A DNA stretch of 64,000 bases from Candidatus Spongiisociaceae bacterium (GTDB lineage: Bacteria; Actinomycetota; Acidimicrobiia; Spongiisociales; Spongiisociaceae). The notes under the pieces are model-generated. The model did no database searches, was not told the DNA's origin, and saw nothing but the letters and a program-made list of their open reading frames with translations. This document shows, piece by piece, positions 19,288-30,679 of this stretch (positions are counted from its first letter, which is position 1; each line of letters begins with the position of its first letter). The stretch spans positions 1,440,001 to 1,504,000 of the forward strand of contig OZ241841.1 of the NCBI GenBank assembly GCA_965202665.1, in the 5' to 3' direction. Both the position numbers and the translations under genes were made by a program.

Positions 19288-20067
19288 ATGTTGCTGGGCG
19301 CCCACGTTTCCGCCGACGATCCGTTGCGACGGGCCCGGGAGCGGGGGGCGGAACTAGTTCAGTTTTTCCTCGGCAATCCCCAGTCATGGAAGCAGGCCCC
19401 GCCCCGTTCCGACGCCGAACAGCTGCGGGCCTCGCCCATCCCCGTCTACGTGCACGCCCCCTATCTCATCAACGTGGCCAATCCTTCCAGCCGCATCCGC
19501 ATCCCCAGCCGGAAAATTCTGGCCCACACCCTGGCCGGGGCGGAGGCGATCGGCGCGGCGGGGGTGATAGTGCACGGCGGTCACGTAACCGACGGCGAAC
19601 ATCCCAAAGAAGGGTTCGACCGGTGGCGGAAAGCGTTGGAGCAAGTTGAGTCGGAGGTTCCGATCCTGATTGAAAACACGGCGGGAGGGGACGGGGCGCA
19701 GGCCCGTCGGCTGGATGTGCTGGCCGCCCTATGGGAGGTGATCGGCGACTACGGGCCGGGTTTCTGCTTGGACACCTGCCATGCTTGGGCGGGCGGCGAG
19801 CCGCTGGAGGGCCTGGCGGACCGGGTGCGGGCCGCCACCGGCCGCATCGACTTGGTGCATCTAAACGATTCCCGCGACCCGTTCGATTCCCGCCGCGACC
19901 GCCACGCCAACCTGGGCCAAGGCCAAATCCCGCCCGACCTGCTGGCGGAGGTGGTGCGGGAAGCCGGGGCCCCCGCCCTGGTCGAAACCCCGGGCGATGT
20001 CCCCGAACACCAAGCCGACCTGGCCTGGATGAGGAACCGTTTGGCCGCCGTCGCGCCGGGCGGTTAG
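19288..20067 (+). CDS. nfo: Endonuclease IV (AP endonuclease)
   Basis: [42 protein letters not shown]. Confidence 0.93.
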
Positions 20068-20077
20068 TGTCGTCGCT

Positions 20078-20437
20078 ATGGAGAAGGTCAGGATTCCCCG
20101 TGATTGCGAGTTGGCTTACTCCACCTTGCGGGCAATAGAAAAAAGAGGCGGGTCAGTTCGAACCGGGGAGTTGAACGACGCCGTGTCGGAGATAACCGGC
20201 CTTACCGAAGAACAGTTGGCATCCGTTAACATCGAGTCGGTCAAGATGCAGATGGGTTGGGCGAGAAGCGGGCTCAAAACCTCCGGTCATCTGGACAACA
20301 GCCAGTGGGGCGTCTGGTCCCTCACGCAACTGGGCCGGGACCTGCTGGAACTTGAACCCGCCGAAGCCGAACGGCTGGCGAAAAAGGCGTGTGATTACGG
20401 TTGGGAAGTCCGGTTTGCGGCAAAGGCCCGCCGCTAG
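20078..20437 (+). CDS. Stand-alone Mrr N-terminal (winged-helix) domain protein
   Basis: TLRAIEKRGGS...MGWARSGLK..GHLDNSQWGVWSLTQLG matches the Mrr_N pattern; no catalytic domain. Confidence 0.75.
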   Translation: MEKVRIPRDCELAYSTLRAIEKRGGSVRTGELNDAVSEITGLTEEQLASVNIESVKMQMGWARSGLKTSGHLDNSQWGVWSLTQLGRDLLELEPAEAERLAKKACDYGWEVRFAAKARR

Positions 20438-20523
20438 GCACAGTCGGACCGCCGCTGGTTCCGAAAAGCCGCCAGATCTCGGCCTTAGGCGTAGGGCGTG
20501 TAGGGCGGGGGTTTGGGATTGAC

Positions 20524-20551
20524 TTGACAAATTGGGGGGGGGGGTTAGCGT
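20524..20551 (+). promoter_or_regulatory. Promoter of SLH gene 1: TTGACA, 16-bp spacer containing G11, TAGCGT
   Basis: ttgaca aatt G11 t tagcgt; poly-G at 20534-20544. Confidence 0.75.
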
Positions 20552-20635
20552 TTTTGCCCGTTCGTGTTGCGGCTGTTGGGTTGCCCGCTATGGCCGTGCG
20601 TAAGGATTTCCGGGCGTTTGGAAGGAGGCGTGGCA

Positions 20636-23600
20636 ATGGTACGCGTGTCGGGGAAGGTTTGGCTTGTGGGTTTGTTGGTGTTGGGTTTGATAGCGAGTTT
20701 GTTGGGTGCGGCTCCGCCGGGTGCGGTGGGGACGCATGGGGATGATGCGGATGTGGATTATGAGCCGTCGTATTCGGCCTGTGTGGGGGCGGCGACGGAG
20801 TCTTTCGGGTTTGAGGACACGGAAGGGTCGTTCGCGGAGGGGGCGATTGATTGTTTGGCGCATTATGGGATAACGACCGGACGGTCGGCGACCATGTTTG
20901 CTCCCAATGATTCGGTGTTGCGGTGGCAGATGGCCCTGTTTTTGGCGAGGGCGGCCGCGGCGGCGGGGATCGTGTTGGCGAACCCGGCTGCCGATCAGGG
21001 GTTTACGGATGTGGGGGCGGTGTCGGGGGAGGCCCGCAACGCCATCAACGGTTTAGCGGCGGCGGGAATCATGCCCGGCATGTCGCAGACCACGTTTTCG
21101 CCGAATGCGTCGGTGACGCGCGGTTCAATGGCTGTGTTGTTGGACGCTTTCCTGGCGCGGGCGACTCCGGGGGCGGGGGCGTTTGGGGGTGAGATTGAGA
21201 AGTATTCGGATGTGATGGTGGATAGTTCCGATGTTTTCAATGATATTAGTGGGGTGTCGTTGAATACTTATAATGCGATTTATCGTATTTATGAGGTGGG
21301 GGTGACGCAGGGGGTGGGGGATCATCAGTTCGGGCCGGGTCGTAATGTGACGCGGGCGCAGATGGCGGCCTTCATAACCCGGGCGTTTGCGCATACGGTG
21401 GCCCGTCCGGCGGGGGTGTCGATTCAGGCGGAGCGGGATTCGGTGTTGGGGGAGTCGTCGGTGCAGTTGATTGTGTCGGTGCGGGATGCGATGTTTCAGC
21501 CGGTGGTGGATGCGTCGGTGGATGTGTTCCGTTCCACCGACCCTGACAACGCTTTGAATGATGATGGCAGGTGTAATGCGGCCAGTGTTAGTCCGGTGGC
21601 TGGTATTGGCCGGGCGGCGTGTGAGGTGGATACGGGGGATGAAACGACGGACGCGGCGGGGGATGTCACCGCCTTGCAACTGCAGGTGTCGGATGCGGAT
21701 GTGACGGTGTGGGCGTGGACGGGGGACCGGGATGACAAGTTCGATTCCGATGACACCACCGCCGCCCAGTTGACCGTCGGGTTTTCCAAGGCGGCCAGCC
21801 AGCTGTTGGTTACTGACAATTTGGAGGAGGGGCAAACCCATCTGCAGTTCGGGGAGACGGCCACGCTGACGGTGCAGGTGGCTAATGAGGATGATGAGCC
21901 GGTGGCGGAGAAGGGGGTGGGGGTGAAGGTCGCCCAGGTTACTACCCCGGATGTGAGCAAGCCGACGGAGACCAACTCGTCCACCAACACCTATACCACT
22001 GATGCGTCGGGGAAGTTTCAGTTGTCGTTCACCCTGACTGATCCCAGTTCCGGTGATGATGAGGACGCTACGGTGGTGGTTACTTTGAGCGAACCGTCCT
22101 CCTATACCCTCCAAGACGAAGACGGGACCGCGTTCTCCTCCAAGACCTACACCTGGTCCGACGATACGGGGGTGCCCGCCATGTTGATGGTGTCGGCCCG
22201 CACCAACTTCGGGAAGGCGACCGATAAGTTGGCCGGGGCTGTGAACGCGGTTACCGCCACTTTGACCGACCAGTTCGGCAATCCGATTCGGGGCAAGAGC
22301 GTCAGTTTCTTCTCCGACACCCAGTGCACCCCGGAAGAGGGGGAGACGGAATGTTCCACGTTGGGGATTGGCGCAAAAATGACAGGCGTTTCCGCGGGGA
22401 CATCGAGCGGAAAGAGGGTTTTGACCGGGGAAGCCCGGTTTACGCGCACCACCAGAGGTGACGGCCGGGCCAGCCTCAACTACAACTACGATTCCACCGA
22501 CGGCGTAATCGAGTCCATCTGGGCCGTTTACACCTTCGCCGGGACTGAAGGGGTACGGGGCTTTGCGGATACCGTCGTTCAGTGCGGCGAGGACGGGGCG
22601 TTGGCGGCGGGGAGTTGCCGCCCGGCGGATGACCCGGAGGACGAAACAGCCCTCACCGCTGATCGCATCCACCATTATTGGGCGGAGGACCCGACCGGGG
22701 TTCCGTTCTTGGGGCGCATTCTGGTCAAAGACGTCGAAAACAACCAGCTGGTGGTGGCGGCGGGGGAACGGGTGATGCTGGTCGAATACGACTCCAACGA
22801 CCAGTTCACCGACTTGGAGGGTCCGGCGCTGATGTCCGAATTCGAAAAGGATTTGGGCGACAACGCCGACCCGGCGGCGGCTCATCTGCGGGTCGACACC
22901 TACCAGGAAGAGTCCGGCAAAGTGAGCGACCTGGTCCTCCGTCCGGAATGGGCCCGCTTGGACCACCCCGACGGGCAAAAAGAGGGCGCCGCCGCCTGGT
23001 TCGGGGCCGCCTTGGCGGTAGACAAAGGGGTGATGGTAGTGGGCGCTCCCCGTGACAATTTGAAAACGGTGGACCCGGACACCGGAGTGAATGATGTGGA
23101 CGCCGACGCAGATACGACCAACGACGCAACTGATGATTACATGGTGTCGGGCATGGTTTACATCTATCCGAACGGTATGGGAACAGAGGCCGGTAACATT
23201 GTCAAACTGTCTCCCCCCGCCACCTCAAACGCGCCCCCGGCCTGGTCGGCGCGCAACGGCTACTTCGGATGGGATGTGGACATCGACGATGACACGATCG
23301 TGGTCGGAACCAGAGTGGGCAAAGAAGTCTACATTTACGTGCGTAACAACGGAACGTGGGGTCCGGATCCCACCGCCACCCTTACCCGGACGGCTGATTT
23401 TCGTTTCGGCGAGGGGGTGGCCATCTCCGGCGATGGGAGCACCATTGCGGTGGCCATGACCAACGCGTGGGGCATCTTTGACCCCGATATCCCGGTGGGT
23501 TCGAACTCGGGGCGGCATAACGGGCGGGTGATCGTCTACGAAAAGCCCGGCGGGGGTTGGGCGGATGACAGCAACGCCGCCGACAACCCGCAACTGAAAG

Positions 23601-24322
23601 ATTCCAGCCACCCGGTCTTGCGCCAGCTGGTGCGGGCGGTGGCCCTTTCCAACGATGGTTCGGTGATTGTCAGCGGGATGTGCGAGTGGAGTTGGAGCGT
23701 TGGTTGCGAAGGGGCGGTCAATGTGCATGTCCGACCGGGCGCTTTTGGCACCTGGGTGGACGCGGCGAACGCCGATGCCACTTTGGTGGCTAAAGGCGGT
23801 CCGAAGGCGGCGCAGAGCATGGGCAAATACGTGGCCATCGACGACGACGGAAACACCATCGTCGCTTCCGGGAGTTTCCACGCCGGGTTTGCCAACGAGC
23901 CGGGCGTGGCTTACGTGTTCAACAAACCCTCCGGAGGCTGGTCGGCTTTGGACGAGCAAAACGACGCGGCGGTTGAGCTGAGCGCCTCCCGACCCCGGAT
24001 CGACGACGTGTTCGGCCAGTACATCGCCATTTCCAGCGACGGCTCGGAGATCGCGGCCGGTCGTCACTATCGGCAGGAAGGCGACTTCCGGGGTTCGGTG
24101 GCGGTGTTCAAAAAGCCCTCCGCCGGTGCCTGGGTCGACGATGCCTCCCCCGATGAGGAATATTTGGGGGATGCTCCCAACGCCCGGTTGGGCTGGCAAC
24201 CCGCCTTCGATCGGGAAGACGGCGCCCTTTACGCTGGGATATTCGACGACACCCGGCCTAAAGACAGGGTTTCCGGAAGCGTGTTGTGGTCCATTTACAA
24301 GATCGACCGTTTTGCCCCATAA
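20636..24322 (+). CDS. Large S-layer-homology (SLH) surface protein 1 with Ig-like stalk and C-terminal FG-GAP-like beta-propeller
   Basis: GGAGG RBS, signal peptide, three SLH motifs (FAPNDSVLRWQMALFL, FSPNASVTRGSMA, FGPGRNVTRAQMAAFI), repeats of type FG..VAISGDG.TIAV / VYIY..P..GW. Confidence 0.88.
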   Translation: MVRVSGKVWLVGLLVLGLIASLLGAAPPGAVGTHGDDADVDYEPSYSACVGAATESFGFEDTEGSFAEGAIDCLAHYGITTGRSATMFAPNDSVLRWQMALFLARAAAAAGIVLANPAADQGFTDVGAVSGEARNAINGLAAAGIMPGMSQTTFSPNASVTRGSMAVLLDAFLARATPGAGAFGGEIEKYSDVMVDSSDVFNDISGVSLNTYNAIYRIYEVGVTQGVGDHQFGPGRNVTRAQMAAFITRAFAHTVARPAGVSIQAERDSVLGESSVQLIVSVRDAMFQPVVDASVDVFRSTDPDNALNDDGRCNAASVSPVAGIGRAACEVDTGDETTDAAGDVTALQLQVSDADVTVWAWTGDRDDKFDSDDTTAAQLTVGFSKAASQLLVTDNLEEGQTHLQFGETATLTVQVANEDDEPVAEKGVGVKVAQVTTPDVSKPTETNSSTNTYTTDASGKFQLSFTLTDPSSGDDEDATVVVTLSEPSSYTLQDEDGTAFSSKTYTWSDDTGVPAMLMVSARTNFGKATDKLAGAVNAVTATLTDQFGNPIRGKSVSFFSDTQCTPEEGETECSTLGIGAKMTGVSAGTSSGKRVLTGEARFTRTTRGDGRASLNYNYDSTDGVIESIWAVYTFAGTEGVRGFADTVVQCGEDGALAAGSCRPADDPEDETALTADRIHHYWAEDPTGVPFLGRILVKDVENNQLVVAAGERVMLVEYDSNDQFTDLEGPALMSEFEKDLGDNADPAAAHLRVDTYQEESGKVSDLVLRPEWARLDHPDGQKEGAAAWFGAALAVDKGVMVVGAPRDNLKTVDPDTGVNDVDADADTTNDATDDYMVSGMVYIYPNGMGTEAGNIVKLSPPATSNAPPAWSARNGYFGWDVDIDDDTIVVGTRVGKEVYIYVRNNGTWGPDPTATLTRTADFRFGEGVAISGDGSTIAVAMTNAWGIFDPDIPVGSNSGRHNGRVIVYEKPGGGWADDSNAADNPQLKDSSHPVLRQLVRAVALSNDGSVIVSGMCEWSWSVGCEGAVNVHVRPGAFGTWVDAANADATLVAKGGPKAAQSMGKYVAIDDDGNTIVASGSFHAGFANEPGVAYVFNKPSGGWSALDEQNDAAVELSASRPRIDDVFGQYIAISSDGSEIAAGRHYRQEGDFRGSVAVFKKPSAGAWVDDASPDEEYLGDAPNARLGWQPAFDREDGALYAGIFDDTRPKDRVSGSVLWSIYKIDRFAP

Positions 24323-24346
24323 GCTGTTTCACGCAACCCAACACGC

Positions 24347-24386
24347 CAGGAAGCCCCCCCGCCCAAGCAGGGGGGCTTCCTGTTTT
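24347..24386 (+). terminator. Rho-independent terminator
   Basis: caggaagcccccc...ggggggcttcctg followed by tttt. Confidence 0.85.
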
Positions 24387-24425
24387 ACCCCCGATTCGGC
24401 GGGCGGTCGGGTTAAATTCGCTTTG

Positions 24426-24434
24426 TGGTATAAT
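24426..24434 (+). promoter_or_regulatory. Extended -10 promoter (TGnTATAAT)
   Basis: tggtataat upstream of the two-gene NTase cassette. Confidence 0.55.
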
Positions 24435-24604
24435 GCGGTGACCGGGTTGTTAGGGGACCCTGTGGTGAGAGTTTGGAGGTCGTGTTGGCGGCGACGGTAA
24501 TGCTATCTGATGATGTTCGGGATGGTTCTGTAGGCGTGTTTGATCCGTCGGGGTGGAACGGGGCGTGGCGGCGGTTGGGGTGGAATTTCTGTTGGCGGGA
24601 GGGC

Positions 24605-25261
24605 ATGGGGGAGACTTTTCCGCATTCTTCCCAGTTTTTGGACGGCCTGCCGGGGCGGGTGCGTGGTTACCTGCTGGCGCGGGGGGCGCCGGAGGAGGAG
24701 GCGGCTGAGGTGTCGGAGTGGGTGAGGCCGCAGTATGAAAAGCATCGTCAATGGAGGGAGCGTCCGCGTTTGAGTTACGAGGAGCGCACGAGGCGGTTGG
24801 GTCGTCCTCCTATGTTTCGCAGTACGTTTCAGGTGGTGCCGGAGTTGCCTGCGTTGATGCGCCGTCCGGATGGCCGGGGAGGTTCCCGGGATTTGGTGCA
24901 GTTCTCTAAAGACTGGGCTACTCAACCGGCGGATCGGATGACGATGATGGCCGATCCTCCGCCCGTCGGGACCGAAGTGGGGATTGCTTGCAGTATCGCG
25001 ACGGTGGTGCATGCGTTGTGCGATCTGGATGAGATGGTCCCGCCGGACTGGGTGTTTGAGTATCGGTCGCCGGAGACGATGTTGGTGTGGGGCATGCAGG
25101 CTTTGGACAGGGCAAGGTTGCGGAGGATGGTCATCGCCAAGTCGCCGCCTGCTTGCGAGTTTCATCGTGTCTTTTTCGAGCGGTCGTTTATAGAGGGCCC
25201 GTTGTGGATAAACACTCCCAGTATTAGTAGACCTGCCGAAAAGTCGGCTTCTGACCAGTGA
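24605..25261 (+). CDS. Hypothetical protein, putative antitoxin-like partner of the downstream nucleotidyltransferase
   Basis: GGAGG RBS before ATG 24605; C-terminal A.VVHALC...PPDWV...SPPA...HRVF pattern; overlaps the next gene (GTGA). Confidence 0.55.
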   Translation: MGETFPHSSQFLDGLPGRVRGYLLARGAPEEEAAEVSEWVRPQYEKHRQWRERPRLSYEERTRRLGRPPMFRSTFQVVPELPALMRRPDGRGGSRDLVQFSKDWATQPADRMTMMADPPPVGTEVGIACSIATVVHALCDLDEMVPPDWVFEYRSPETMLVWGMQALDRARLRRMVIAKSPPACEFHRVFFERSFIEGPLWINTPSISRPAEKSASDQ

Positions 25262-25923
25262 CGGAGATAACTTCCATCTCTGATCCTACTGATCTTAACG
25301 GGCCGCGTATACTCAGTTTGTTTAGACTGCTGGACGAGGTTCTGGAGGAACCTACCTCTATTTTAGTGGTCGGCGGGGCGGCTCTGGCGGTGCACTGGCA
25401 TGAACAGAATATCCGCCAGCGGTCAACGAGGGATATTGATTTCGCCCCTATTGCATACCATGATTTCCCGGAGCACAGTACTTACACGGTTGACATTGCT
25501 ACCCCGTCAATGCCTGCTCATATTATGAATGCATCTGAAATAATTGCTGAACGGGAAACCGTTGAACCCGATTGGTTGAACAATAAAGTTATAAATGTGA
25601 TGGCGCCGGATGTGGAATATGAACCGACGGAGATATTCTGCGGACACCGGCTGGATGTTTACCGTCCCAGTCTTAAAGTGCTGTTGGCTATGAAACTTAA
25701 GGCGAGGCGGGAAGCTAAAGACTTATCCGATGCCATTCAGTTGGCCCTTGAAACTGGTATAGATTCTACTGAGAAGATGTTGCTTTTGGTGGAGGATACT
25801 TTTGGGGAAGAGCATATTGCTTTTGATGTTCAAGATTTCATATCTGATGTGGAATACAGGTATCGGTTGTTGCACGGGCGGGAAAGCGGTGCTTTTTCTG
25901 AACGCGATTTCGGTTTGCAATGA
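25258..25923 (+). CDS. Pol-beta-like nucleotidyltransferase (DUF6036/AbiEii-like), putative toxin
   Basis: VVGGAAL...RSTRDIDF, PDWLN, LLAMKL.A.R..KDL.D; low GC. Confidence 0.78.
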   Translation: MTEITSISDPTDLNGPRILSLFRLLDEVLEEPTSILVVGGAALAVHWHEQNIRQRSTRDIDFAPIAYHDFPEHSTYTVDIATPSMPAHIMNASEIIAERETVEPDWLNNKVINVMAPDVEYEPTEIFCGHRLDVYRPSLKVLLAMKLKARREAKDLSDAIQLALETGIDSTEKMLLLVEDTFGEEHIAFDVQDFISDVEYRYRLLHGRESGAFSERDFGLQ

Positions 25924-26117
25924 GTTTGTCCGTCCGCCGGCGCCTCGGTCCAACCACCTTTACAAGAGGCTCCAGCCGGGTCGCAGGTTCCCGCCAGAGT
26001 TGCCAACCGCACCTAAACACAGCGGGCGGCAACATCCCCCAAGGCCTCAAAATGGCTAGGGAGGGGGCGGCCCTGCCCGCTGTGCCGAGCGACCGGCCAA
26101 GAATCACCAAAGCCGAT

Positions 26118-26170
26118 TTGACAGGGGGAGGCAGCAGCGTTTTTGTCATCGCGGCCGGTTGGTTGCCCGA
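26118..26170 (+). promoter_or_regulatory. Degenerate third copy of the SLH promoter/leader (spacer collapsed to 11 bp)
   Basis: gatttgaca gggggaggcag cagcgtttttg ... gcggccggttggttgcccg aligns with 20521-20587. Confidence 0.5.
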
Positions 26171-26356
26171 TCGGCGGTTGCAAGTTGATAGGCTTCGGGC
26201 GTTAGGAGTAAGGAGGAATGTTGATCCCCGACGGCCGGGAAGCCGGGAGGCCCCCCGCCCGCTTCGGGCAGGCGGCGGCGGCCAAGCGAGCGCCGGTTGC
26301 ACCGAACGGATGGTATGGCGCGCTCCGGGCGGATGCGTCGGGGGGCAGGGATTGAT

Positions 26357-26385
26357 TTGACAAAATAGGGGGGGGGGGGTAAGAT
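26357..26385 (+). promoter_or_regulatory. Promoter of SLH gene 2: TTGACA, 17-bp spacer containing G12, TAAGAT
   Basis: ttgaca aaata G12 taagat; poly-G at 26368-26379. Confidence 0.8.
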
Positions 26386-26470
26386 TTGGGGCGTTGGGTT
26401 GCGGCTGTACGGGTTGCACGCCGAGATCTGCGCGCAAGGATAATGCCTGGACTATAAGGAGGAAGAGATA

Positions 26471-29400
26471 ATGCCCCGCGTTGCGGAAAAGCGTTGGTTG
26501 ATACTGGTAGTGATGCTGGGCCTGGTGGCCGGGCTGTTGGGCGTTGACGACCAGCGGGCGGTTGCGACGCATGGGACGGACCCAGATGTGGATTTCGAGG
26601 CCACCTATTCGGCCTGCGTGGGAGCGGCCACCGACCCGGCGGGGTTTGAGGACACGGCGGGATCCTTTGCGGAGGACGCCATCAACTGCTTGGCCCATTT
26701 CGGGGTGACCCAGGGCCGCACCCCCACCACCTACGCCCCCAACGATTCGGTTTTGCGGTGGCAGATGGCCCTTTTCCTGGCCCGGGCGGCCGGTCCGGCG
26801 GGCATCGTGCTGGAAAACCCGGCCACCGACCAGGGCTTCACCGATGTCGGCGGCCTGTCCGACTCGGCCCGCAACGCCATCAACGGCTTGGCGGCGGCGG
26901 GGATAATGCCCGGGGCTACGGCTGCCACCTTCACTCCCAATCAGCCGGTGACCAGGGCTTCCATGGCAATGTTGATAGACGCTTTCCTCCGGGAGGCGCG
27001 TCCCGGAACCGGCGCTTTCGGGTCCGAAGCCTCCAAGTATTCGGAGGTGGTTTCGGACAGCAACGCGGTTTTCAACGACCTAACCGGGGTTTCCATCCTG
27101 GAATTCAACGCCATCGGACGTATTTACGAGTTGGGGATAACCAGGGGGGTGGGGGACCACCAGTTCGGTCCCCAAGGCTTTGTGACCCGGGCGCAGATGG
27201 CCGCCTTCATCACCCGGGCTTTGGCCCACACCGTCGCCCGCCCCGCCGGGGTGTCGGTGCAGATCTCCCAAGACACCGTCAAAGGAGCGGGGTCCTCGAC
27301 GGAGCTGTTGATTTCGGTGCGGGACGCCGCTTTCGAGCCGTTGGCTGATGCGACGGTGGATGTGTTCAGCTCCGCCGACGCTCCCGCCGCCTTCGCCTCC
27401 GACGGCTCCTGCGCCACCGGAAAAGTCACCGGGGTGATCGGCGCCTTCGCCTGCCAGGTGGACCGGAACGACGAGGTAACCGACATTACGGGGGATATCA
27501 CCGATTTGACTTTGGACAACATTTCCGCCGCCACCACGGTGTGGGCGTGGACCGGCGAGGTGGGTGACAAATACGGTTCTGAAACCGACGCCTCTTCGGC
27601 GACGGTCGGTTTCGTCAAAGCCCCGGCCAAGGTTTTGGTGTCGGACGATCTAAAATCCGACCAGCAGCTGTTATCGCTGGGCCAGACCATCAAATTCACG
27701 TTGCAGGTGGCGGATGAGGACGACAATCCGGCGACGGAGCCCGGATGGCGAATTCCCATTACCATCAGCGAAACCACTGGAGCCGGCGCGACGACCGGCA
27801 GTTCCTCCACTCATCTCACGGACGACCAAGGGCGGGTGGAATTGTCGTTTACCAAGACCGGAACCAGCGCCCCCGGGGAAACGGCCAAAGTGACCCTTCA
27901 GATCGGAGCCTCCGCCGCCGTCAGCGATGATGTGGCCGTCAAACCGGGAGTGTCCGGCAACTTGCCGGTGGTGGACATGACCACCAACAAAGTGGAGACC
28001 GTGGGTGATGACGCGGGCAAATACGTGGCTCGTTGGTCTGAAGAAGCCTCGGAGCCTACCACTTTGACCATCAGTCCCAACAATCCGTTTACTTTGGCTT
28101 CAGATACGGGTCGGGGGGCGGTCAACATGGTTACCGCCACTTTGACCGACCAGTACGGGGCGGGGGTGCGGGGGGCCAGAATCGCCTTCCGCTCCGATGA
28201 TCAGAACGGCGTCGGAGGCGCCGGCGACGGTCTCAACGTGACCATCTCCCGAGAGGCTCCACCGCGGGGAGGATTTAATGTTCATGCTATCGCTTTGGAG
28301 GTTTCCCCGGCCTTCATAACCACTGGGACATCCGAGGTGGAGTTTACCATCACCGCCCGCCGTACCTCCGGCGTTTCGGTCGGTTATGATTTACCGATCA
28401 ATTACGCTATCGATCTGGCCTATGGAGTCACCGCTACGCCCGAAGCCCTTTCCGGGGTTCTGGTCATTCCTAGAGATTATGTGAGCGGTTCCGTCGTCCA
28501 CCCGTCCATGACACTGTCCGTTCCGGAAGACGCGGTGGGTCTCAGTATATTCATCGGAAGAGTCGGTGCCTTGCCTACCGGGCCTCCCATCACCGTCGGT
28601 AGGACCCAAGTGGATATTGTGGAAGGCGAAGGCGGGGAAACGGTACATTCTGACATTGTTTCCCAAGGGGGTGTCCTGAAGATTGTTCCGTGTCAGTTCC
28701 CGAGGCTGGTGGGTAGCGATCTCCTGCCGGGAGGGGTGACTCCGGTGCGTTGTTTGACCGGTGAGCCCCGTAACAACAATTACCGTACCACCAATCGCTC
28801 CGGGAAGGCTATTTTCTCTTACAGTCGAGATGACGACAGCGGCGGTTTGGAAACCATCTGGGCTTCCTATCTGCTAAGAGACACCGGAGACATTACAGAA
28901 AGCTTGTTGTCTGACCGCCTCTACCACCCCTGGGCGGAGGAAACGGACGGGAACGTCAGCGGTCAAATTCTGGTGGCGGACGCCGACAACGATCAGGCGG
29001 TGATACTCTCCGGGTCGGGCTATGCTCCTCAGTTGGTCAAATACGACAGCAACGATCAGTTGAGTAGCTTGGACGGGTTGGACATCTACGCCAATTTTGA
29101 CAAGCACATGGGTCGGGTGGAAGGTGAGCGGTTACCCGGATATATGACGGTGGGGTCCTATTCGGGCACTGCTAGCGGAGTTAGCCAAATTTCCCTTTAT
29201 GGCCGATCCACCTATCAGCCCCCCAGGCACATCGCCGAGGCTATGGATGATAAAGCCGCCATAGCCGTCTCTGGCAACGGGGTGGTGGTGATCGGCGTTC
29301 CGGATAGAAATGCGGCGTACGTGTATAGCGGCCTTGGGGATCGCACACCGCAAACCTTGACCCTTAACAATCGTACCGTATCTGAGATAGATGATAACGG

Positions 29401-30679
29401 ACTAAGCGGTAGTGGCGGCAATATTCGCACACGCGTTCGGGCCACGACTGCTTCCTCCTTCGGGACGGATGTGGCTATCAGTGATGACGGGAACACGATT
29501 GTGGTCGGCGATCCCCAACGGAACCACCCCGATCGCCAACTTACTGCAGTTCACCATGGGGCGGCTTACGTTTATACCCGAGGTTCGGGCGGGCAATACC
29601 AGCTGGCCGCCCTCTTGTCCAACGATTATTATTTTCATCAAGACAATCCCTATCACGGGTCTAATTTCAAAAGCCTTAATTTCGGGGCCGGGGTTGATAT
29701 TTCCGGGGATGGGAATACCATAGCCGTGGCCTCGCCCGGTGGCGGTTACAAGCCGCCGCATCCGGGTATGATTGGCCATGCTTGCCACCCGTCATCCGGC
29801 AACGATTGCGAGGTTGGATACATACATGTGTACCCCAAACCGGATGGCGGATGGCGAGACGACCACGGTTTCTACCGGGTCGCTTCCGCCGAGTTGGTTC
29901 CGCAGACATCTAGTACCTTGGGCACACCTATCTACCCCAATGATATTGACCTTGGCAAATACCGGAGCGTGAGCGTTTCCTATGACGGTTCGGTGGTGTC
30001 AGCCGGGGCTCCATTGACCTATATTCTTTACCCCGACCCCAACAACCCGGGCGACACGATTGAGCGCGAAGAATCTGGCGGGGTTTTTGTATGGGAAAGG
30101 CCGGATGACGGATGGTCCACCTCTGAGCCAACTGTTTACAACGCACTTCTGGGGTTGACCTTCGAGGACTCGGAAGATTTCGGGTGGATAGGAGGGGGGG
30201 CGCGGCTGTCCGCTGACGGTTCTACAGTGGTGTTTTCAGGTAATCATCCGGAGGCAGGCGATCCAAAAGCGGAGTTGTACGTTTTCCGCAAACCCGCCAC
30301 TGGCTGGGCCATTAGCGTCACTTACCAAACCTTGTCCCTTCCCGATTTGCAAAATAGAGGTAGTGCCACTTATACCATTAACGGAGTAGAAGTACAACGA
30401 CAGTTTATACCATCACAAGCGGCGTTCGGCCAGTGGGTTGATGTAAGTTGGGACGGCTCGGAAGTGATAACCAACCGCCATCTGCAATCACTAGGCGATT
30501 ATCGCGGGGGCGTGGTAGTGTTCGCCCGTTCCGCCGACGGAAGTTGGGAACCGGCTGGCGGTTTCCTCGGTGACGCCGGAAGCGGGTTCGGCCGCTACGC
30601 CGCCGTCGGAGGCGACGATTCCGTGGTGGGTGCCGACCAGTTTGGAGGTAAAGTAACCTGGATCAGCCGTCCCCGCTGA
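26471..30679 (+). CDS. Large SLH surface protein 2 (paralog of 20636-24322) with FG-GAP-like propeller
   Basis: AAGGAGG RBS, signal peptide, SLH motifs YAPNDSVLRWQMALFL and FGPQGFVTRAQMAAFI, repeats FGTDVAISDDGNTIVVG and FGAGVDISGDGNTIAV. Confidence 0.88.
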   Translation: MPRVAEKRWLILVVMLGLVAGLLGVDDQRAVATHGTDPDVDFEATYSACVGAATDPAGFEDTAGSFAEDAINCLAHFGVTQGRTPTTYAPNDSVLRWQMALFLARAAGPAGIVLENPATDQGFTDVGGLSDSARNAINGLAAAGIMPGATAATFTPNQPVTRASMAMLIDAFLREARPGTGAFGSEASKYSEVVSDSNAVFNDLTGVSILEFNAIGRIYELGITRGVGDHQFGPQGFVTRAQMAAFITRALAHTVARPAGVSVQISQDTVKGAGSSTELLISVRDAAFEPLADATVDVFSSADAPAAFASDGSCATGKVTGVIGAFACQVDRNDEVTDITGDITDLTLDNISAATTVWAWTGEVGDKYGSETDASSATVGFVKAPAKVLVSDDLKSDQQLLSLGQTIKFTLQVADEDDNPATEPGWRIPITISETTGAGATTGSSSTHLTDDQGRVELSFTKTGTSAPGETAKVTLQIGASAAVSDDVAVKPGVSGNLPVVDMTTNKVETVGDDAGKYVARWSEEASEPTTLTISPNNPFTLASDTGRGAVNMVTATLTDQYGAGVRGARIAFRSDDQNGVGGAGDGLNVTISREAPPRGGFNVHAIALEVSPAFITTGTSEVEFTITARRTSGVSVGYDLPINYAIDLAYGVTATPEALSGVLVIPRDYVSGSVVHPSMTLSVPEDAVGLSIFIGRVGALPTGPPITVGRTQVDIVEGEGGETVHSDIVSQGGVLKIVPCQFPRLVGSDLLPGGVTPVRCLTGEPRNNNYRTTNRSGKAIFSYSRDDDSGGLETIWASYLLRDTGDITESLLSDRLYHPWAEETDGNVSGQILVADADNDQAVILSGSGYAPQLVKYDSNDQLSSLDGLDIYANFDKHMGRVEGERLPGYMTVGSYSGTASGVSQISLYGRSTYQPPRHIAEAMDDKAAIAVSGNGVVVIGVPDRNAAYVYSGLGDRTPQTLTLNNRTVSEIDDNGLSGSGGNIRTRVRATTASSFGTDVAISDDGNTIVVGDPQRNHPDRQLTAVHHGAAYVYTRGSGGQYQLAALLSNDYYFHQDNPYHGSNFKSLNFGAGVDISGDGNTIAVASPGGGYKPPHPGMIGHACHPSSGNDCEVGYIHVYPKPDGGWRDDHGFYRVASAELVPQTSSTLGTPIYPNDIDLGKYRSVSVSYDGSVVSAGAPLTYILYPDPNNPGDTIEREESGGVFVWERPDDGWSTSEPTVYNALLGLTFEDSEDFGWIGGGARLSADGSTVVFSGNHPEAGDPKAELYVFRKPATGWAISVTYQTLSLPDLQNRGSATYTINGVEVQRQFIPSQAAFGQWVDVSWDGSEVITNRHLQSLGDYRGGVVVFARSADGSWEPAGGFLGDAGSGFGRYAAVGGDDSVVGADQFGGKVTWISRPR

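Follow-up and report, generated by a model that had tools for sequence, protein, structure and literature searches.

The 64-kb stretch of DNA analysed here (hereafter the window) covers positions 1,440,001 to 1,504,000 of contig OZ241841.1, a single contig of 2,768,541 bp and 64% GC that makes up the genome of a Candidatus Spongiisociaceae bacterium (Acidimicrobiia); the public sequencing runs holding the sequence are labelled 'sponge metagenome'. Two large genes in the window, gene 1 and gene 2, encode proteins with N-terminal SLH domains, and each is preceded by a promoter-like site (site 1 and site 2, respectively) in which a pure run of G residues occupies most of the spacer between the -35 and -10 boxes. 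This genome has at least 24 independent promoters that follow a single design, those of gene 1 and gene 2 among them, and the possible role of the G tracts of these two in variable expression of surface proteins is the subject of this report.

Architecture of the two promoter-like sites

Site 1 reads GGGATTGAC-TTGACA-AATT-G11-T-TAGCGT, with a spacer of 16 bp, and site 2 reads GGGATTGAT-TTGACA-AAATA-G12-TAAGAT, with a spacer of 17 bp, TTGACA being preceded by GGGATTGA(C/T) in both cases (Table 1). This shared architecture of TTGACA, poly-G spacer and TANNNT box had been described in an earlier note on this stretch, and its letters, coordinates and spacer lengths were verified, as was the placement of both G runs exactly between the -35 and -10 boxes of the promoter-like sites. 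The note had also seen no other G run of this length in the window, and indeed the G11 and the G12 are its sole G/C runs of at least nine bases, the next being one C8. Downstream, AAGGAGG is found at 20622-20628 (gene 1) and 26456-26462 (gene 2), about 70-76 nt past the -10 boxes, and the ATG codons at 20636 and 26471 place the promoters about 85-90 nt upstream of the genes, with leaders of about 79 nt at both genes if transcription is assumed to start about 7 nt past the -10 box. In a generic promoter scan of 11 kb, site 2 came out among the top two sigma-70-like sites (10 of 12 matches), and anatomically both sites are of the promoter-spacer homopolymer class exemplified by porA, tp0126 and vlp. 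Judging from consensus and conservation, both are putative promoters. No Rfam family matched within 20000-27000.

Table 1. Positions of the promoter elements, genes and other features in the window
Feature	Position	Strand	Remarks and basis
-35 box TTGACA, gene 1 promoter	20524..20529	+	Preceded by conserved GGGATTGAC; invariant among 9 aligned paralogous promoters
G11 tract, gene 1 promoter spacer (16 bp)	20534..20544	+	Sequence; gapless G11 in independent X5 contig
-10 box TAGCGT (TANNNT type), gene 1	20546..20551	+	Sequence and paralog alignment; predicted start about 20558
Gene 1, 1228 aa	20636..24322	+	SLH domains, Big_1-like stretch, FG-GAP repeat (Pfam; SLH E 6e-25)
Two overlapping open reading frames between the SLH genes	24473-25261 and 25258-25923	+	No family above threshold; outside the putative switch
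Gene-less relic of family promoter and leader	26118..26220	+	Alignment to paralog leader at genome 1947357
-35 box TTGACA, gene 2 promoter	26357..26362	+	Sequence, promoter scan, paralog alignment
G12 tract, gene 2 promoter spacer (17 bp)	26368..26379	+	Sequence; G12 in X2 contig; G12 in sister-species ortholog
-10 box TAAGAT, gene 2	26380..26385	+	Sequence, promoter scan; predicted start about 26392
Gene 2, 1402 aa, N-terminal SLH protein	26471..30679	+	Pfam and alignment to gene 1

The SLH assignment of both proteins is well above threshold, with PF00395 scores of 87.3 and 87.1 bits in genes 1 and 2 against a cut-off of 20.8 (residues about 55-170), and a hydrophobic, signal-like N-terminal segment is visible in the translations of the SLH proteins. 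Gene 1 and gene 2 products are 53% identical across their first 587 aa, and identity falls to 28% in the remainder. A PDB sequence search with gene 2 returned no solved relative.

A G-rich stretch, GGG-N6-GGG-N-GGGGG-N3-GGG (20494-20517), closely precedes the -35 box of site 1, and similar stretches were seen in the alignment upstream of several paralogous promoters. A G-quadruplex formed by the tract alone was considered and dropped, a single run being unable to fold by itself.

A family of poly-G promoters across the genome

The genome contains 76 G/C runs of at least nine bases, 24 of which have TTGACA 4-5 nt upstream and are directly followed by T(T)AG(C/G)GT or TAAGAT. Scanning the genome and its relatives, as suggested in the earlier note (TTGACA with G runs of nine or more), gave these 24 promoters here and the pattern in 5 of 41 related genomes, this one included. 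For 23 of them, an open reading frame (ORF) of 1175 to about 4500 aa begins no more than about 100 nt away; the products would be giant secreted proteins, most of them SLH-anchored. By Pfam, nine of these 23 giant ORFs, both window genes included, are N-terminal-SLH proteins of about 1250 aa; another 11, of 1840-2400 aa, have the SLH domains at the C-terminus and in some cases Calx-beta as well; three (about 4500 aa) gave no Pfam match. The 24th promoter (genome 846185-846205, spacer 15) precedes an ORF of about 90 aa and a 512-aa fusion of an N6/N4 methylase with HNH, and a similar promoter and leader are present in the sister species G001. Estimated from ORF lengths, the genes behind the 24 promoters amount to about 5% of the coding capacity of the genome, to which restriction-modification genes have to be added.

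Alignment of the nine N-terminal-SLH promoters showed an island of conservation consisting of GGATTGAYTTGACAAA, the tract and TAGCGTTTT, beyond which the upstream sequence is unrelated; the ribosome-binding site is invariant among them and the leaders have diverged, with a mean column identity of 67%. Related arrangements were seen at further loci. Poly-C tracts occur at promoter-like positions before other giant genes (10398, 12727 and 1528 aa), and an SLH paralog at genome 1775999 (+) has a family-like promoter with a non-homopolymer spacer, GATTTTGACTTGACAAG-TTTTTTGGGGACGC-TAATGT, resembling a 'locked' variant. At genome 1783935-1783967, a G14 and a G15 with CGGC between them abut the 5' end of a start-less copy of an SLH paralog, which begins within the signal peptide.

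The earlier note had proposed a paired, reciprocal switch, with slips of a single base exchanging one paralog for its neighbour in the surface coat. The two genes are adjacent, have the N-terminal anchor in common and carry spacers of 16 and 17 bp, as such a coupled toggle would have it, but the two tracts are separate, lie 5.8 kb apart and would slip independently, and 22 further promoters of the same design are found elsewhere in the genome. Moreover, gene 1 has a closer relative than gene 2, namely the paralog at genome 2094072 (2094042 with the promoter included), which shows about 99% identity over the first 400 or so aa and is mosaic beyond, and whose promoter and leader are nearly identical to those of gene 1. 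The sites belong to 24 independent promoters and nothing was seen to connect one tract with the other; this part of the note is unsupported, and such a toggle is highly improbable.

The length distribution of the runs departs strongly from expectation. G/C runs of 7, 8, 9 and 10 bases number 865, 96, 1 and 0, while those of 11 to 16 bases number 24, 28, 14, 2, 3 and 2, with one run of 19 and one of 33 in addition. In total, 75 runs of at least 11 bases were found against about 1.3 expected by log-linear extrapolation, and lengths 9 and 10 are depleted (1 and 0 seen against 25 and 5 expected). Long repeats are over-represented relative to composition, as in contingency loci. Since G9 words are not enriched in the window (7, against 15.7 in dinucleotide shuffles), the case against chance is built on run length and placement. 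The promoter tracts are G11 (13), G12 (10) and G13 (1), and the other 52 tracts peak at 12-13. Two outliers are a G33 run at genome 640404-640436 and a C12 followed by an A13 at 2473121-2473145.

Spacer length, tract variation and competing explanations

TTGACA-Nx-TANNNT sites of this genome that have no G tract number 2, 6, 22, 22 and 10 for x = 15 to 19, and because these counts peak at 17-18 bp, the usual spacing was taken to be 17-18 bp. Among the poly-G promoters the spacers measure 15 bp (8), 16 bp (11) and 17 bp (5), with none of 18 or 19 bp, so that 19 of the 24 fall below the usual spacing; gene 2 (17 bp) is at it and gene 1 (16 bp) is one base short. We consider it likely that both G runs, as spacers of sigma-70-type promoter-like sites of SLH genes, are slipped-strand mutational dimmers, two of at least 24. 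In the proposed mechanism we take the sites to be active promoters whose transcription would track spacer length. If the tracts slip at a high rate, as we infer, the gain or loss of one G at replication would alter how far apart the -35 and -10 boxes lie and hence transcription. With the common tracts of 11-12 G, the spacer measures 15-16 bp and misses the usual 17-18 bp by one or two bases, so that most members would be low or off and a changing minority (those at 17 bp, gene 2 included) on. Each promoter would slip independently, and each cell would display a different set of surface proteins. The earlier note had read G12 as ON and G11 as low or OFF; the 17-bp spacer does fit the preference of the genome and 16 bp is rare among its ordinary promoter-like sites, but for the 16-bp spacer reduced expression is more likely than absent expression, and the expression states would follow from spacing by inference only.

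Several indirect lines of evidence suggest that tract length may be labile. In this genome the same flanks carry G11, G12 or G13, and the flanking bases do not compensate for the difference. All 24 promoter tracts are uninterrupted despite the divergence of the leaders, whereas the tract of a gene-less relic in the window is interrupted. This relic precedes the live gene 2 promoter by about 240 nt and retains TTGACA (26118-26123), the interrupted tract GGGGGAGGCAGC (26124-26135) with three substitutions at positions aligned to the pure tract of the paralogs, CAGCGT in place of TAGCGT, AAGGAGG (26210-26216) and ATG (26218); no real-looking ORF follows the latter. An ORF at 25920-26360 stops inside the -35 box of site 2 but is not taken to be a gene, its translation being rich in Arg, Gly and Pro and its sequence containing the relic leader. 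The one-contig genome of G001, a sister species of the same genus, holds 43 such sites, 42 of them distinct after de-duplication, with tracts of G11 (20), G12 (17) and one each of G13, G14, G15, G18 and G19, and with spacers of 15-23 bp.

Tracts of the same length class also lie within restriction-modification and defence-like genes. Three tandem Type ISP restriction-modification genes (single-chain nuclease-helicase-methylase) are found at genome 1215.7-1232.9 kb, and in each gene 3-4 poly-G tracts cluster about the region for the C-terminal specificity domain. A single gene of the array is intact, encoding 1613 aa with four tracts in frame, and the other two stop 6-8 codons past a tract, where one G fewer restores about 1600 aa. 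Extra ORFs between these genes encode only the second half of the specificity domain. The array is a candidate phase-variable system, possibly one that switches specificity. At genome 1927360, a C11 splits an SNF2-helicase ORF (630 aa) from a NOV_C ORF (432 aa), and one added base joins the two into 1069 aa; at genome 2443138, a G12 splits a Type III-like N6/N4 methylase gene adjoining a ResIII gene, and one base fewer gives 829 aa. In a genome of genus g4 (G009), three SLH paralogs have a second tract after the signal peptide, which is a G11 in frame in two of them and a frameshifted G12 in the third. Among the tracts classified, the repeats are thus found in surface and restriction-modification genes and in mixed frame states, as is characteristic of contingency loci.

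With regard to repair, no match to MutS_V (MutS domain V) was found in the genome, which is 94% complete by marker genes, and NucS is present. NucS-type repair leaves short indels uncorrected, according to excerpts of PMC8228993.

A number of observations weigh against the reading of the tracts as mutational dimmers. Site 1 is absent from the list of the generic promoter scan of 11 kb because its weak -10 box, TAGCGT, shares only 3 of 6 positions with TATAAT. The preference for 17-18 bp is drawn from motif counts rather than from mapped promoters, and the geometry of an all-G spacer may deviate from that of mixed sequence, shifting the optimum. Sequence support across the sites came from assembled Logan contigs of public runs; site 1 is crossed by a contig of run X5, which comes from another study and has G11, and site 2 by one of run X2, which may be the source sample and has G12, both as in the assembly, and no contig covers site 2 in X1, X4 and X5. 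The positional ortholog of gene 2 in G001, identified by a common downstream flank, has G12 and 17 bp as well, though with another spacer sequence and -10 box, which would fit selection for 'on' or equally a stable element. Finally, the assembly may misstate the length of homopolymers by one base.

The site-spanning contigs and the G12 common to gene 2 and its ortholog, together with the retention of a tract in the promoters of two genera, would also be expected if the G tract were a fixed promoter element, for instance a structural or factor-binding part, such as a site for a lineage-specific regulator, or a rigid spacer that determines promoter strength, with length differences that reflect slow drift rather than switching within populations. 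However, spacers range over 15-17 bp here and 15-23 bp in G001 without compensation between tract and flanks, and those of 22-23 bp are hard to reconcile with an element of fixed geometry. Moreover, the +1/-1 frameshifts that tracts of the same length class cause in unrelated restriction-modification and defence-like genes are unlike any role of a promoter element, and we regard a fixed element as unlikely.

Long homopolymers are error-prone on most sequencing platforms, and the differences between paralogs are all of one or two bases. The tracts might accordingly be real and their exact lengths unreliable, which would make the on/off reading of 16 versus 17 bp meaningless. Such a consensus artefact is nevertheless quite improbable, as gapless contigs from other runs have the same lengths (G11 in X5 for site 1, G12 in X2 for site 2), four tracts are in frame within the intact 1613-aa ORF, and the sharp gap at lengths 9-10 is unlike random length error. 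Two further signals in the contigs were set aside. Contig ends at the site 1 tract (X1, X2 and X5) were rejected as a sign of heterogeneity, since 31-mers common to the paralogous promoters explain the breaks, and one-base-shorter contigs in X4 (depth 2.35) and X5 (depth 6.2), which seem to derive from the paralog at genome 2094042 or from a minor variant, were judged too weak.

Relatives, known systems and significance

Besides the genome studied here (G000), the pattern TTGACA-N3-6-G9 is carried by G001, by two genomes of genus g4 and by G011, the last with a single, probably chance match. Runs of G11 or longer are more widespread, occurring in 22 of the 24 other genomes of the same family and in four of the 16 genomes from other families of the order, many genomes being fragmented; the latter count includes G035 and G039, in which the matches listed lie at contig ends, and rests partly on G039, which is flagged unpublished. 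In the SLH paralogs of genus g4 (G004 and G009), G12-16 separates a TTGC/TTGAC element from a TGnTATAAT box. This geometry differs from that of the promoters described here, and in some of these paralogs a second tract lies in the signal-peptide region. Site 1 has no syntenic counterpart in G001, in which the genes upstream map to 3.05 Mb with no SLH gene after them. A broad contig scan for TTGACA-N4-5-G11, with near-genome records excluded, gave scattered single matches in many phyla among the matches listed, and a metagenome scan gave one unrelated AT-rich contig.

The two sites would best be read as part of a poly-G system that acts in the promoter spacers of many loci, of the type known from porA/tp0126 and with an organisation resembling that of the vlp family. 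In porA and tp0126, a poly-G run forms the promoter spacer of a surface-protein gene and expression is best at 17 bp, according to excerpts of PMC7864442; van der Ende 1995, on porA, appears in the reference list of PMC5084427. Like the sites described here, Neisseria meningitidis porA and Treponema pallidum tp0126 have a pure G run as the spacer between the -35 and -10 boxes, but they are single genes of Gram-negative and spirochaete pathogens for which length variation and reporter data have been shown, whereas the present system, known from sequence alone, comprises 24 promoters with G11-13 before giant SLH-type proteins of an uncultured, sponge-associated member of the Acidimicrobiia. The vlp genes of Mycoplasma hyorhinis form a multigene surface family with a poly-A in the promoter spacer of each member and combinatorial on/off expression. 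The likeness lies in a multigene family of surface proteins in which each member has a spacer homopolymer of its own; the differences lie in poly-A rather than poly-G, in small lipoproteins as opposed to proteins of 1200-4500 aa, and in a wall-less, low-GC organism.

The poly-G/C contingency loci of Campylobacter and Helicobacter, collectively termed the 'phasome', include phase-variable restriction-modification genes; these genomes are low in GC and their tracts, of 8-13 bases, are mostly intragenic. In both cases long G/C runs are in excess genome-wide and gather in genes for surface structures and for restriction-modification, some copies standing in the on frame and others in the off frame, but the present genome has 64% GC, lacks lengths 9-10 and holds one third of its tracts in one promoter cassette. 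In the sap system of Campylobacter fetus, the S-layer varies by DNA inversion and recombination around one promoter. The choice among S-layer or SLH-type paralogs is similar, but sap has no homopolymer in each promoter.

Among the Actinomycetota, Gardnerella carries long G/C tracts in abundance, most of them no more than 300 bp upstream of an ORF and several before surface proteins, and tract lengths vary between colonies, as described in excerpts of PMC11287997. It differs in belonging to the Bifidobacteriales, in being human-associated and in a tract threshold of at least 8 bases, and no common promoter cassette or SLH proteins are reported in those excerpts (PMC11287997). The earlier note knew of no such system for SLH proteins in this kind of actinobacterium; the variable G/C tracts of Gardnerella (excerpts of PMC11287997) temper any such claim for actinobacteria at large, but none was found for SLH proteins or for Acidimicrobiia in the literature searched. 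No paper linking phase variation and homopolymers with sponge symbionts was found in the open-access literature searched, nor was such a system apparent in excerpts of that literature on phase variation with S-layers or on Acidimicrobiia with sponges. The mechanism is already known; the lineage and the scale are new, and the link with SLH giants is notable.

Most known cases of homopolymer phase variation come from pathogens and commensals of animals, which are exposed to adaptive immunity. The present genome has this design at large scale, in an uncultured, GC-rich sponge symbiont in which no MutS was found. If the tracts truly switch, heterogeneity of the cell surface at the population level would matter in sponge-microbe symbiosis, and the tract length of each promoter would be a sequence-readable marker of the surface proteins expressed in situ. 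Annotators should be aware that a single consensus assembly cannot reveal the expression state of these giant genes. A bolder proposal, which we advance only tentatively, is that a family of sponge-symbiont Acidimicrobiia runs a large poly-G 'phasome', with about 75 tracts in each genome, held at G11-13 by mutational equilibrium. Of two dozen or more promoters of giant surface proteins, most would thereby stay one or two bases below the working spacing, and each cell would show a small random subset of coats while restriction-modification enzymes flip in parallel. If this were true, stochastic individuality of surface and defence would exist in a mutualist, directed against host phagocytosis or phages rather than against adaptive immunity.

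Between the two SLH genes, outside the putative switch, lie the two overlapping ORFs listed in Table 1. The second of them (221 aa) shows sub-threshold matches to DUF6036/AbiEii nucleotidyltransferases, and the pair (24473-25923) may be toxin-antitoxin-like.

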